From Escherichia coli (GTDB lineage Bacteria; Pseudomonadota; Gammaproteobacteria; Enterobacterales; Enterobacteriaceae): a stretch of 64,000 bases of DNA. Within the stretch, counting starts at the first letter, position 1. Each line of letters starts with the position of its first letter. Of the stretch, positions 12,001 to 24,000 are shown piece by piece. Location of the stretch: assembly GCF_030013205.1 (NCBI RefSeq), contig NZ_CP122648.1. The stretch is one strand, 5' to 3'. Position numbers: made by a program.

Positions 12001-15000
12001 ACATATTATTAATAATGTAGGATTATATAAAAAGATATTATTAGAGTTACAATATGTTTATTATATTTACGTGTAAATATGCACATCTACAGATATAGAG
12101 GATATTAGACGGGGAAACCCACATCTATTCTTTAAAGATGCTATACGTAATGATACGCATAGAAAAAACACAAAAATGAATTCCTAATCTTTGTCTTTTA
12201 TTTAAATGACTGGAAACATCCAATTATTGAAAGTTGGTTTCCTAAAAAATTCATTTACGTTCCATTTGAATTTAAAGAACAAGCGACAATTAATCGATAA
12301 AAAAGACAATAAAAATTCCAGGTTGCTTATTTTGGAAATGAACTTACCAGAAGACTTATCTTCACTAAACATAAAAACTGGTGATAACTCCAATTAATAT
12401 AACATATATTTTTCGATAAAAGCACCGATGACTTTTTCATGAAGTTCCACAAAGCGCGAGGAACAGATGGTTTTGCGAGCCAGACGTTTGATTCGGGTTC
12501 TCAGGGTCAGATTGTTGCGCTCAATGCGTTGAGTGAAAATTGTACCAGTCAGATGCTTCTCCTTCGGTAACTCTCTAGTGTAACTACCCCATTCGTCAGT
12601 GATCAACACACCGATGGTAAAAGGGGCAAGCAGCGCCAGCAATTCACGACAGGTTCCATCAGTCCAGGGGCCAAAAGTGTAGGCCAGAACGCCATCAGTT
12701 TTCGTGTTGTACGCGTACCAGAGCCGGTGCTGTCGCCTTTACTGCCGACAAAACTCGATTGCTCATCAGGTTCGCAGATGAGTGCCACATCAGCATGAGC
12801 GACCGGGGATGACGTTATTCTTCGTGGCGAGAGTTTTTTAAAGTCCGGGTGACAGTATTAATGCCGATTTTCAGCATAGGGGCAGTATCGCGAATTCCGA
12901 CACCATTGAAAGCCATTTCAGTGATTTGGTCTTTAACTCCCGGTTTACGGGCCTCGTAACAGTAAGTGAGCTGAAACACCCGGTGACAATCACGGCAGCG
13001 GAATCGCTCATGTCCTTTTGGGGTCTTCTCGTGACGGTAAACCTGAACGGACTGGCAACGGGAGCAATGAAGGTCAACTATAACCATGAAAGAACCTTAA
13101 ATTCGAGTATTTTAGCCCTAAATCAACTAATTGGAAGCATTGCCGTTGAAAGATTATTGTGAGATTGGAATGTATTTTACTAAAAAAGTTGCATGGTCTG
13201 TAATCATATCGACGGCGCTATTGAATTGTATAAAAATGATTGATCATATTTTTTGTCGTGTTATTTAATAATCTTATGTGAAATATCAAGCTAATTTTTA
13301 TTTAAAAACGGTTGTGAAAATGAAAGTATTATATGTTACCAATAGTGCGAGAAGAGAAAGACCATATTTAGATCCAGCGGTTAGGTATAGATGTTATAAT
13401 TTTGCAGAGGTCCTGAGAGCTGACCGAAATCTTGTAAATGTCATTCATTTGGGTGACTTGAAAATGGACTATATATCCTATTTCGATGTTATCGTTTTTC
13501 ATAAACCTCCATTTACAAAAAACTTGCAGGCTGCAATAGCTTTTGGCGAGAAGTTAAAAAAAATAATTATTGCCGATTATGATGATCTCATTTTCGATGA
13601 AAAAAATGCATTGTTTTCGTCTCTATATTTGAATGGCAGAGCAACTGAAAAAGAAGCTATTAGTATATTCAATAGAAATCACAAGGCTCTTAATCTTTTT
13701 AATAAAATTACCGTATCTACATATCCACTTCGTGATGAAGTACTCCACTCGAATCCAGATGCAAACGTAAAGGTTATACACAATGGCCTTTCTCAGATTT
13801 GGGTTGATAGAGCAAGAGAAGACATACTTAGCAACCCAGTACCAGGGCTTATTGGGTATTTCTCCGGCACATCAAGTCATAATCATGATTGGCAAATGGT
13901 CGAGGATCTATTAGCCGAGTTTCTTAATAAAGAAAAAAAAGCAAAACTAAGAGTAGTTGGTCCATTGCACATTAATAAAGATAAATTTGACCAATCTAAA
14001 CTTGAAATTATCAAAGCTGTTGATTATGAAAAATTGCCCAATCTTATTAATTCATGTTGGGTAAATATTGCTCCGTTAGAAAATAACCTTTTTAATTCGT
14101 GCAAGAGTGGTCTTAAGTTCTTTGAAGCTGGAATTTTAAATGTACCATCAATTGTTTCACCAATCCCTGATATGTGTAGATTTTCAGAGTCTGGCCTGTT
14201 GATGCCAAAAAATCCAGATGAATGGACTGATTCTTTGCATTTAATGATGAATGAAAGTACGCGGCAGTCATTATCAAAAAAAGCGTACCAGTTCTCAATT
14301 GATAACTGCATGGCTAGAAATCAATTAAATACTCTCAAACAATTTTATTCTTAAGAGAAAATTAAAATGAAAATCCTTTTTTATCTAGAAATTCACCCAA
14401 TTAGAAATAGCTATTCATCTTTCACCTGGGTCGGAAAGCAGATTATAAATATGTTGAGAAAGCAGTATCTTTCTCAACACCATGCGAAAATTGATTATGA
14501 TGATATTCGAATCGTTGTTTCCAGACATTATCAAGAACTTATTGATAACAATCAGGATTTAAAAACAATTTTTCTTGGACTAACAAAAGAAGAAAATGAC
14601 AGACTTTCTTTTTATATGAGAGACTGGAATTCTGATGTTCAGGCGATAAACAATTGGACATCTTTGATGCAGGGAACTGGTGAGGTTTCTGAATTTTATA
14701 AAAGCATCCTCGATAGGATTTATCAAAATACATTTAGTTTTGATGTCGTTGTTAACTGGAGCACTAATGGTGCAATTCGTGATTTCTGTCGGGAACGAGG
14801 TCTAAGTAATGTATCTATGGAATTGGGATGTGTCAGGGAACCAATTATAAATACCGTATGTTTCGATGCGTGTGGTGTTAATGGCAATTCAGTGATAAAG
14901 AATTTAGATTTTAACGCAATTGATGAAGATGAACTTATAGATATTAAAACAATCATGCCTATCAAGACAAAACATGATATGTCCCTTGATTCATTGTTCA

Positions 15001-21000: not shown

Positions 21001-24000
21001 ACGTTATTCTTCGTGGCGAGAGTTTTTTAAAGTCCGGATGACAGTATTAATGCCGATTTTCAGCATAGGGGCAGTATCGCGAATTCCGACACCGTTGAAA
21101 GCCATTTCAGTGATTTGGTCTTTAACTCCCGGTTTACGGGCCTCGTAACAGTAAGTGAGCTGAAACACCCGGTGACAATCACGGCAGCGGAATCGCTCAT
21201 GTCCTTTTGGGGTCTTCTCGTGACGGTAAACCTGAACGGACTGGCAACGGGAGCAATGAAGGTCAACTATAACCATGAAAGAACCTTAAATTCGAGTATT
21301 TTAGCCCTAAATCAACTAATTGGAAGCATTGCCTCCTCTAGTAAAAAGAACATTATGAAATAATATAAATGTCACTGGGAACAAAGAACAAAATATAATT
21401 AACTATAAACAAATTAAGGAAATAGGGAATAATGTAATTAATTTCTGGCGACTCTCACAGGATAATGTAATTACATTTGGCAGTAATTCTCAATGTAATA
21501 ATATAAAAATTGTCATAAAAGGCTCTAATGACAAGATAATAAGTCATGATAATGTTAAATTAATTGGACACATTTTTATTATTGGTAAAAATAGAACAGT
21601 TGATATTGGTGAAAATACAACGATTCAATGTGTTTATATTTTAAGTCGAGATGCTGATATTTATATTGATCATAACTTTATGCTTTCTCCAGAAATAAAG
21701 ATACGCTCTATAAATGCACATATGATATAAATACAGGTAATCAAGTAAATCATGCAAAGGATATCAATATGGGTGAATATTATTGGATTGTAGCTAGAGC
21801 AATTCTATCAAAAGGAGCGATCATTCCTAATGGTAGTATTATGGGTGCATCATCATTTTTAAATAAAGCATATTTAGAATGAGTTCACATAACTGCGGTG
21901 ATTTCAAGAAAAATTGTAAAACGAAATATTCGGTGAAAATATAATGGTGGGAAATCTTATTAGGGGAAACAGGAAAACAAATTGACATCTAATTACAAGA
22001 ATTAGTCAACACTTGCGTTTATACTCTGAGTGAGAAAATTCCATAATAAGTTGCATTAACCTGCGTCTTCACCAATAAATACCCCCGAAACTTCTTAAAC
22101 AGTTTCATATCCGGTTTAAAATCGGCCTGCCAGAACTGGTGCAAATGCCCTTGATACGTCAAGCCTTTGATGTCGTACAGGGCATTGCCCATCACTTTGA
22201 GTGGTTTGTTATGAATCAGCGCAGAGATCCCCGCCGTACTGTTAATCGTCACTACCGCTTTTGCATGGCGTAATAATTCCGGCATCGGGAGATCGTGCAC
22301 ATAAATGACTCGCTCATCTAAGCCATATTCCTTACTCAATCGCTTAATTAATGGTCGATAGAGTCTGTGACCACGATCCATCGGATGATGTTTGATCACC
22401 AAATAACTTTCTTTCGGCGCTTTACGTGAAAATGAGTACATGACTTCATTAATATAGTCACGCACATCGTTATAATTACTGTGGTTACGAATCTGGCTAT
22501 CGTTATATACCTGCAAAACGGCAAGATAATAACGCTGGTCCAGCTCGTTCATTAACCTCGGTAATACCTTACGCTGTGTTACCTTGTAAAGTTGCTTGCG
22601 CCAGTATGCACGAACCCAACAACGAGCCTCATACCAGGGGGAAAACGATTTATGGTGGCGGTAGCGAGGGAACTCATGGCGGTAATGCCAGCCCATCAGG
22701 TAATACCACATCGCATGACCTATACGTTTCATCGTTGAAGGTTTAAAGTTCTCAACGTGCGGCGTAGGCATATCTGGTAACTTACGATAAAAATCCGGAT
22801 CGCGCGGTAGCGATGAATATGCGTTTACTCCGCCTTCTTCAACGGTAATAAATTGCGGGCGTAAATATCCTTCCTCAAATGCCAGAAAGCGGATCCCTTT
22901 CGACTTTGCCCAACGTTTTGCTTCTTTGTGCAATGGGCGGCAGTCACCAAAGCAGAGGATGGTATCAAAGTCATATTGCCGGTGGAGATCCCGTAACCAT
23001 CCGGGGAACTCTTTCGGCGTTTGGTAGTAAGCCAGGTATTGTCGATGGCGGCAGTAAAAACGATCCCCACCGTTGAATACAACATTCACAGCGTTACGTC
23101 CTAATGACTCTAACCATTCGGCGACGTCATTGAAAAAAGGTCCCATCGGCCCCTGCAATAGCAGATATTTTTTACCGGATAATAAAACGGTTAGTGCATC
23201 ACCGTGCATAAATAATTTGCGTAATAGTCAACTATGAAATTGTTTAGCCAAATCTGACCTTGCAGAACATAATTAATTTGCGGTAATAACGTATTACTCG
23301 CCCCGCTTTTTTTCTGGTAATAAACAACGGCTTGCGCGGCGTCTGGATCAAATATTCCGCCGCCTCTTCAACCGTAATAGGTTGTAGCCGTGTTGGGTGG
23401 ATATAGGTTGGATAAACAATCAACGCCTGATAGATCAAATCTGCTAACGTTAATTTTTGCTCGCGGCGCGGGCAGTGATGTTCATCAACGGTTAAACCCC
23501 AACCGGCATAGAAGGGCAGGCCGTAACAATGAACTTGCTTGCCATGTAATAACGCTTCAAACCCGGACAATGATGTCATGGTGTGCACTTCATCTGCGCG
23601 CTGAATGCATTGAATAATATCTGCGTCCAGTGCCTGATAATCAGCGAGTTCAGCAATTAGTTCTGCCGGAATATCGCCCTTGCGATTCCCCACCAGTACA
23701 TCCGGGTGCGGTTTATAAACAATGTAGGCGTGCGGATTACGCTCGCGTACTGTGCGTAATAACTCAAGGTTGCTCTTAATCGAGACAGTGCCTGTTTTAA
23801 TAGAGGCATCGTCCTCTACCTGACCCGGCACCAGGATAACTTTTTTATCTTTGGCTTCGGCTGGTAGAGAGAAATCGGCTCCCAGGTTGTACTTACTCAG
23901 TTTGCTTTCAACCAGTCGCTGGCGTAATTTTTCAGCTCGCATCTGCTGCGCCAGCGTTAACTGGCTGTGATTAAGCAGGACTTCCAGGTCGCTGGGGCGC

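Follow-up and report, generated by a model that had tools for sequence, protein, structure and literature searches.

A pair of defective IS1-family elements borders a probably imported capsule gene block in Escherichia coli and appears to serve as homology for its loss and amplification

The window analysed here is a 64,000-nucleotide stretch of Escherichia coli DNA (contig NZ_CP122648.1 of RefSeq assembly GCF_030013205.1), which covers the gsp–kps–pheV region and matches the pig enterotoxigenic E. coli (ETEC) strain ETEC4079 at 100%. Its genes are arranged in the order gspC-M, kpsM and kpsT (plus strand), a first insertion sequence (IS) of the IS1 family, four capsule region 2 genes (plus strand), a second copy of the same IS, kpsS, C, U, D, E and F (minus strand), a degraded island and tRNA-Phe. 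This is the layout of an E. coli group 2 capsule locus (kpsFEDUCS, region 2 and kpsTM at pheV, beside gsp, with an ops element before kpsM), and a tRNA-Phe gene and an integrase are found downstream of it. A first-pass annotation of the window had drawn attention to the IS pair as near-identical direct copies that enclose four intact region 2 genes, and had proposed that recombination between the copies would delete or exchange the serotype-specific cassette. The features on which the analysis centres are given below; the term donor-type refers to IS-free capsule loci on the Logan contigs L016, L028 and L029, described further on.

12380..13144, minus strand: IS1-family copy 1, 765 bp, with insA at 13087-12815, an A6C frameshift site and an insB carrying a 1-nt deletion.
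13145..13243, plus strand: 3' stub of a donor-type kpsT, its last ~33 codons, frameshifted; it begins at the IS edge and aligns with the end of kpsT in L016 and L028.
13320-14354, plus strand: glycosyltransferase, the first region 2 gene, an intact open reading frame (ORF).
14367-15980, plus strand: transferase of beta-linked 3-deoxy-D-manno-oct-2-ulosonic acid (beta-Kdo transferase), an intact ORF with PF05159 and GT99 domains.
16025-19156, plus strand: 1043-aa protein, an intact ORF, annotated as an AlgX-related O-acetyltransferase in some RefSeq genomes.
19283-20320, plus strand: family 1 glycosyltransferase, an intact ORF.
20493..20568, minus strand: 3' stub of a donor-type kpsS, its last ~25 codons (76 bp), finishing at the IS edge.
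20569..21333, minus strand: IS1-family copy 2, 765 bp, with the same insB lesion as copy 1 and a terminal base A, not G.

From the evidence presented below, we consider it likely that a defective, IS1H-like pair borders an imported capsule block, and that the two elements now act as 765 bp of portable homology giving rise to conversion, deletion and amplification.

The intervals originally assigned to the copies, 12381-13144 and 20570-21333 (764 bp), align in the same orientation without gaps and with 4 mismatches, and a repeat finder seeded the same pair. Comparison with IS1H-type relatives, together with the GG...CC logic of the ends, moved the true element end one base further left. The corrected length of 765 bp adds a fifth difference at the terminal base, which is G in copy 1 and A in copy 2, and the identity between the copies is 99.3%. 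The two elements are direct repeats 8,189 bp apart, and their transposase genes are oriented opposite to kpsMT and region 2. The 23-mer of the IS end occurs 2 times in the window as compared with 0 expected in shuffled sequences, and the ends GGCAATGCTTCCAATTAGTTGAT and GGTGATAACTCCAATTAATATAA form imperfect terminal inverted repeats that match at 14/23 positions. Both the length and the ends are those of the IS1 family (~740-800 bp, ~23-bp inverted repeats starting with GG), except for the A that replaces the first G in copy 2. The sense strand encodes a 90-aa InsA, an A6C slippery motif TTTAAAAAAC at offset 302 and the InsB frame, i.e., the zinc ribbon/HTH gene insA joined to the DDE gene insB by a -1 frameshift at A6C that defines the family. 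The IS ORF products, as taken from a metagenomic copy of the same locus, contain the domains Zn_ribbon_InsA, HTH_Tnp_IS1 and DDE_Tnp_IS1 (PF03811, PF12759, PF03400). The nearest named E. coli relative is IS1H with ~90% identity. Thus, the initial description of a near-identical, direct, IS1-family pair around four intact plus-strand region 2 genes (13320-20320) held, with only the limits of the copies revised.

Compared with two IS1H-type relatives, insB in both copies is short of one base (AAAG[C]GCG), which shifts the frame 37 codons ahead of those two relatives' own lesion, and every examined copy has been flagged as frameshifted by RefSeq/PGAP. Because this 1-nt deletion is common to both copies, they are classed as non-autonomous; as read from the sequence, the transposase is defective in both, and transposition by their own means should not be possible today. 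Past transposition is still compatible with the shared lesion, as the copies exchange sequence (see below) and the lesion could have spread from one to the other. The 9-bp flanks of copy 1 are ATAAAAACT and GTTGAAAGA, and those of copy 2 are TTCCTCCCA and TCCTCTAGT. Their reported non-identity was borne out by base-by-base inspection: no target-site duplication of 8-9 bp was found for copy 1, copy 2 or the pair as a whole, all four flanks being unlike. A 5-base likeness, TCCTC, which appeared at copy 2 when several boundary choices were tried, was treated as a chance match.

The origin of the DNA between the copies was traced through the Kdo transferase, a search with which returned a 91%-identical protein on contig L016. 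There, a stretch of 77 bp without an IS separates kpsT from the first glycosyltransferase gene. An exact look-up of the L016 glycosyltransferase led to the longer contigs L028 and L029, which contain the complete IS-free locus in the order rmlC, debris, kpsM, kpsT, the four synthesis genes and then the convergent kpsS, kpsC and kpsD. L028 and the window share 95.3% identity across 7,434 bp; the match spans 13144-20568 and coincides exactly with the inter-IS interval, and L029 and L016 agree with this. The locus therefore has the arrangement of a composite transposon, in which one IS is present twice around a cargo whose ends coincide with the IS ends. On the left the match ends ~100 bp before the donor kpsT stop, and on the right 76 bp before the donor kpsS stop; both donor genes run on uninterrupted past these points. 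Inside the window, 13145-13243 translates as ...LKDYCEIGMYFTKK / CMVCNHIDGAIELYKND*, which is the C-terminus of donor KpsT with a frameshift, and the minus-strand translation of 20493-20568, GRNILFSATLSTNDRLRISIKI, stands opposite the donor KpsS C-terminus ...GRDILFSATLSANVGLPISIKMNL*. A 20-codon ORF with a ribosome-binding site at 20509-20568, considered as a truncated gene start, proved to be the antisense of this foreign kpsS stub.

The donor kpsM/T, kpsS and kpsC share no more than 67-71% identity with their resident counterparts, and resident kpsT and kpsS are complete. Moreover, none of the 5,426 complete E. coli genomes contains the donor-type locus. Because of these three observations, i.e., matches that end at the IS edges, diverged resident genes and a donor type absent from E. 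coli genomes, the cargo can be identified as a piece of a foreign capsule locus, and the comparison indicates that the inter-IS DNA is an import from a different ABC-transporter capsule locus. In this sense the cassette exchange envisaged by the first-pass annotation is visible at the locus, as a segment of another kps locus that ends exactly at the IS edges. The donor-type locus has a history of its own: upstream of kpsM (L028 1-4400, L016 1-513) it contains rmlC, a KpsS/KpsC-like fragment and a truncated rmlA, from which it appears to be a rearranged mosaic itself.

We considered whether an active IS1 could instead have inserted twice and independently, once upstream and once downstream, into a native region 2 passed on by vertical descent, the target duplications having been erased later by point mutation. 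In favour of this, no IS family is more frequent in E. coli K loci than IS1, an IS is present in 28% of K-locus sequences (PMC13171598), and IS1H-like copies of ~90% identity are widespread in E. coli. However, such a history would leave no reason for foreign kpsT and kpsS stubs just inside the copies with complete resident genes outside, nor for IS-free homology that ends exactly at both IS edges. In addition, mutational erasure of two 9-bp duplications is incompatible with 99.3% identity between the copies, and this IS variant is found nowhere else in the 5,426 genomes. Two separate insertions are thus hardly credible.

The distribution of the block was examined by megablast of 11900-21900 against the same 5,426 genomes; all variant structures described here rest on public assemblies. 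The cassette was found in 28 genomes, and in 28/28 of them the IS copies were present at both ends. IS copies of at least 99% identity occurred in 30 of 20,395 records (30 of 5,426 complete genomes), always at this capsule locus and never on plasmids, and the cassette was not found at a second genomic site in these genomes or on plasmids. Twenty-four independent complete genomes, from pigs and humans and from several continents, share the two-copy structure with the same flanks. The carriers include O139:H1 strains, and the locus is also present in pig oedema-disease and ETEC strains.

Comparison of the IS haplotypes in the window and 11 other genomes showed that the only variable positions are the five sites that separate the window's two copies, and that each allele is one of the two copy states. 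Copy 1 occurs as GTGGA, GTGAG, GCGAG, GCAAG, GTGAA and GCAAA, and copy 2 is ACAAG throughout, except for ACAAA in EC556. At sites 155 and 525 all four gametes were seen. Since alleles swap between the two copy states and four gametes are present at 155/525, the pattern indicates repeated gene conversion between the IS copies. The terminal IS base never exchanges and behaves as part of the flank.

Larger rearrangements, each with IS-to-IS junctions, were found in 6/30 carrier genomes and represent at least 4 events:

Deletion, kpsT – one IS – kpsS: WP5-S18-ESBL-08 and EC5654 (sequences L001 and L002); the single IS has the copy 1 left flank ATAAAAACT and the copy 2 right flank TCCTCTAGT.
Duplication, IS-unit-IS-unit-IS: EC556 (3 IS, 2 units); EC571 and EC581 give the same hit pattern; pig clone.
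Amplification: TUM17543, ten IS and nine units over ~80 kb (sequences L005-L007; NZ_CP135643.1, 806.7-888.1 kb).

The deletion strains realise the cassette loss that had been proposed for the pair. Tandem amplification is the reciprocal product of deletion, and the IS copies at the internal junctions of EC556 and TUM17543 have TTCCTCCCA on the left and GTTGAAAGA on the right, as predicted for unequal crossover within the IS. One-IS and tandem derivatives with the predicted junction flanks are the behaviour known from the r-determinant (see below). Of all single observations, this natural amplification to nine units in TUM17543 stands out as the most unusual. The units of TUM17543 are, in order, 9935, 9063 (x5), 8191, 9063 and 8191 bp long and differ by IS5 insertions: seven of the nine have IS5 at the 3' end of the last glycosyltransferase gene, the first has a further IS5 in the first glycosyltransferase gene, and two are IS5-free. 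The order of the unit types implies that duplication was repeated several times once IS5 had inserted. By haplotype, EC556 and TUM17543 fall into separate groups.

A 765-bp repeat breaks short-read assemblies, and several draft contigs stop at the IS or represent 8.2-kb collapsed units; it was therefore asked whether the pair itself, or the variants with one, three and ten copies, might be assembly artefacts produced by repeat collapse or expansion. The TUM17543 array, moreover, comes from one assembly. An artefact is nevertheless highly improbable: the 24 independent complete genomes share not only the two-copy structure but also copy-specific bases and four distinct flanks, EC556, EC571 and EC581 show the same duplication pattern, the fixed order of the IS5 differences among the TUM17543 units is unlike simple over-expansion, and the two single-IS genomes come from different lineages. 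The possibility of an assembly duplication, raised in the first-pass annotation as an outcome that would overturn it, can accordingly be set aside for the pair.

The two single-IS genomes differ from each other in IS haplotype (GTGAG vs GCAAG), in the identity of 21334-22018 to the window (100% vs 99.4%) and in the alleles of neighbouring genes, each resembling cassette-bearing relatives: EC5654 falls in with UPEC132 and TUM17543, and the relatives of WP5-S18 are LR-31 and the pig strains. Owing to these differences, the two genomes are best read as two independent losses. Alternatively, they could represent an ancestral docking state, into which a circle of one IS and cargo was integrated by homologous recombination. 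The order kpsT – IS – kpsS is the structure expected of a docking site, the r-determinant of NR1 forms recA-dependent one-IS circles (PMC7986276), and the absence of an outer target duplication would fit integration by recombination. Yet each of the two genomes shares its flank and neighbour alleles with cassette strains of its own lineage, which makes two recent losses more parsimonious, and docking would require the same rare IS variant beforehand in both donor and recipient; we consider the docking state unlikely. The WP5-S18 IS was at one stage taken for a mapped chimera of copy 1 and copy 2 with a crossover at offsets 155-469, a suggestion that was dropped as the same haplotype is copy 1 in S1-IND-02-A.

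The IS-to-IS junctions are precise, the transposase is defective and the copies show a pattern of gene conversion; from this we infer that recA-dependent homologous recombination drives the rearrangements. Returning to the imported, IS-bordered block, the following history may be proposed. Two IS1 insertions, one in the donor kpsT and one in the donor kpsS, would have created a unit with a 7,424-bp block composed of the last ~100 bp of the foreign kpsT, the four synthesis genes and the last 76 bp of the foreign kpsS. The unit would then have entered a group 2 locus between the resident kpsT/kpsS and older region 2 debris, either by transposition of the composite element or by recombination between an IS copy and a circle that contained one IS and the cargo. 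Import as an IS1-bounded unit is the most likely course, the two routes being indistinguishable from one another. Since the outer duplication is missing and the resident region 2 is reduced to debris, an adjacent IS1-mediated deletion after insertion is proposed, which would have removed the outer target duplication along with most of the old region 2. At present, homologous recombination between the two IS would convert the copies, delete the block, so that one IS remains and the synthesis genes are gone, or amplify it in tandem, and all three outcomes are present in natural genomes.

Several points weigh against this history or narrow it. The outer flanks ATAAAAACT and TCCTCTAGT differ, so there is no target duplication at the level of the unit and transposition of the unit has left no direct sign. 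The IS-free locus was found only on Logan contigs, with no match among species-representative genomes, and a donor locus bearing the IS copies was not found in the searches made. A 43-mer across the insB lesion, with the intact form allowed, had no match in a collection of one genome per bacterial species; a protein-pattern scan of the same collection with a Kdo transferase alignment returned only a 39%-identical Sulfurimonas gene; and a plasmid search yielded no region 2, a best IS match of 93.9% and kpsMT of the L016 type at no more than 72%. The deletion crossovers are not tightly mappable, because the IS haplotypes of the deletion strains equal copy 1 haplotypes of other lineages, and that of WP5-S18 can be placed only beyond offset 155. 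The nine-unit array is from a single assembly, the capsule type discussed below is assigned indirectly, and expression, read-through and recA dependence are deduced rather than observed.

The block appears to be maintained as a functional unit. The region 2 ORFs are intact in 7/8 carriers checked. In comparison with the donor type, the ratio of nonsynonymous to synonymous substitution rates (dN/dS) amounts to 0.12 in the first glycosyltransferase gene and to 0.41 in that of the Kdo transferase, from which it follows that the genes have remained under purifying selection. In one pig ETEC carrier, ETEC1701 (sequence L013, NZ_CP122938.1), the first glycosyltransferase gene and the 1043-aa gene are each split by premature stops; in that lineage, capsule synthesis is, by its gene content, also being lost through point mutation. 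Distant homologues of the Kdo transferase are fused to rhamnan-synthesis domains. An NCBIfam search gave no family match for the 1043-aa protein, the second glycosyltransferase or a 58-residue ORF fragment of the left flank, and a protein search found no JGI relatives closer than 57%.

The features that frame the IS-bordered block are the following:

10505..10516, plus strand: ops element GGCGGTAGCGTA, 28 bp 5' of the kpsM start codon, the RfaH loading site.
10545..11983, plus strand: resident kpsM (10545-11321) and kpsT (11318-11983), both complete.
11902..12379, plus strand: left outer segment, 478 bp, consisting of the last 82 bp of resident kpsT and 396 bp of AT-rich non-coding DNA.
21334..21944, plus strand: hexapeptide-repeat O-acetyltransferase pseudogene, full-length, with an ATG at 21355, a stop after ~4 codons and further frameshifts.
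22019..23209, minus strand: resident kpsS, complete.

Up to ~11901, kpsM and kpsT are of the ordinary E. coli group 2 type, kpsT being 92-96% identical to common group 2 kpsT. Homology to common group 2 loci stops at ~11901, in the 3' end of kpsT, and restarts at ~22041, 22 bp inside the 3' end of kpsS, which delimits the locus-specific DNA to 11902-22040; beyond ~11901 homology is confined to 30 genomes. The IS-bounded module makes up the central 8,954 bp of this interval. The left outer segment has a G+C content of ~25-36% and seems, from its sequence, to be debris of an older region 2. A 63-codon ORF at 12206-12397 in this AT-rich spacer runs into IS copy 1 and has no NCBIfam match; it may be a truncated gene start from the older region 2, or spurious. 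On the other side, the acetyltransferase pseudogene adjoins kpsS outside the IS pair and is confined to the 30 genomes mentioned above. At the nucleotide level it shares 82% identity with an intact 198-aa gene that occupies the corresponding place beside kpsS on the E. coli contig L027 (a value of 72% was also recorded for this homologue), which identifies it, on comparative grounds, as a remnant of the resident region 2, i.e., a fifth region 2 gene. The first-pass annotation had included neither this gene nor the foreign kpsT and kpsS stubs, the broken transposase of both copies or the tandem amplification. The homology to L027 begins exactly at the outer edge of IS copy 2 (window 21334, L027 3223), and immediately upstream L027 contains IS3-family debris, so that two mobile-element boundaries lie within ~3 bp of each other, 21 bp before the acetyltransferase start. 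This coincidence near 21334 could reflect a hotspot, shared history or chance. Further downstream, at ~30700-42300 between kpsF and tRNA-Phe, lies the degraded pheV island, which according to the ETEC4079 annotation contains IS110-family remnants, a CbtA/YeeU toxin-antitoxin pair, ISEc20, an Ail/Lom protein, a frameshifted sulfatase and a tyrosine integrase.

In the donor-type locus, the first glycosyltransferase gene lies 77 bp behind kpsT and must share its transcript; in the window the two genes are separated by 396 bp of AT-rich DNA, the 765-bp antisense IS and 175 bp more. Simple scans detected no promoter-like site on the plus strand of 13145-13320 and no terminator-like hairpin in the IS, and promoter and terminator scans around both copies gave nothing above shuffled expectation. 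Given an intact ops site and no sign of a promoter of its own, region 2 is probably reached by RfaH-modified polymerase that starts at the kpsM promoter and reads through copy 1. The polarity exerted by IS1 is Rho-dependent, and RfaH suppresses Rho. The 28-bp spacing between ops and kpsM is that of group 2 loci, in which RfaH-dependent transcription reads through from region 3 into region 2 (PMC8960920). Alternatively, region 2 may be served by an outward promoter borne by the IS, as proposed for another kps locus (bioRxiv 10.64898/2025.12.15.689991); the first-pass annotation had likewise suggested a promoter supplied by copy 1, or polarity imposed by it. The ops core GGCGGTAG has three further exact matches in the window (22657-22664, 47177-47184 and 58881-58888); four matches against ~1.2 expected by chance are borderline, and the other three have no recognisable promoter-proximal leader.

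As regards the capsule type, K12 (formerly also K82) is the probable assignment of the locus. Among the cassette products are a beta-Kdo transferase and two glycosyltransferases, and there are no rml genes in the window; in related loci such genes adjoin the cassette, a Rahnella-type locus having rmlB, A and C and the donor type rmlC and an rmlA fragment. According to published work, K12 contains rhamnose, its kps cluster is without rml genes, and it was found only with rhamnose-containing O types, with O139 included in the preprint version; K82 has been merged into K12 (PMC13171606). The assignment is based on the Kdo transferase, the lack of rml, the rml genes in relatives and the O139 carriers, O139 being among the published K12 hosts. 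If the import left the donor rml genes behind, this would account for the dependence of K12 on an O antigen with rhamnose. In a recent study, K12 ranked with those E. coli capsule types that have the strongest association with invasive disease (PMC13171606).

The locus offers a base-resolved case in which a new capsule type arose by grafting, not by recombination in the flanks. The same repeats render the capsule unstable, ~1 in 5 carrier loci having lost or multiplied the block. Genotype-based K typing is affected, since short-read assemblies break at the repeats and the copy number goes unseen, and this has a bearing on capsule-targeted vaccines and phages and on the interpretation of capsule-negative isolates. 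It is tempting to go further and regard the block as a working modular capsule cassette, with an excised circle that re-inserts at kps loci having a matching IS, single-IS strains that serve as docking sites, and copy numbers of 0, 1 and 2 to 9 that are selected; we regard this extension as rather doubtful. If it were true, copy number would turn the capsule off or raise its dose across hosts (pig gut, human urinary tract, phage or serum pressure), and E. coli would have copy-number control like that known for Haemophilus type b.

The closest known counterparts are IS1-flanked resistance units. Tn9 is a cargo flanked by IS1 that shows the same excision and amplification behaviour as the r-determinant of NR1/R100, in which, like in the window, direct IS1-family repeats bracket the cargo. 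Excision of the r-determinant is recA-dependent and leaves one IS, and amplification proceeds as IS-cargo-IS-cargo (PMC7986276). The locus described here shows the same three states in natural genomes. In contrast to both systems, its cargo is a chromosomal capsule block and not resistance genes, and its IS copies have a broken transposase, no unit target duplication and the sequence of a ~10% diverged IS1H-like variant. A second parallel is the cap locus of Haemophilus influenzae, which is flanked by direct IS1016 copies and undergoes frequent tandem duplication and recombination-mediated capsule loss (10.1101/543454). There, the whole cap locus including the export genes lies between copies of a different element, whereas in the window only region 2 and the kpsT/kpsS stubs are bracketed; because of this, a deletion removes the serotype-specific region 2 and should leave the export machinery intact. 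Closer in species and locus class are the K4-like and K5-like loci of E. coli (e.g., KL127), where IS elements, IS1-family ones included, were reported in 2026 to have region 2 genes as cargo and have been proposed to bring genes into region 2 (PMC13171598); another capsule catalogue of 2026 left out transposase ORFs and mobile elements. In the literature read, we found no description, for this locus, of a whole-region-2 IS1 module, of the IS-free donor arrangement or of the deletion and amplification derivatives. Compared with the K4-like and K5-like loci, the window has two full IS copies around an entire functional region 2, its IS-free donor arrangement is resolved to the base, and both deletion and amplification derivatives are documented. 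It serves capsule genetics as a clean and useful example, not as a new principle.

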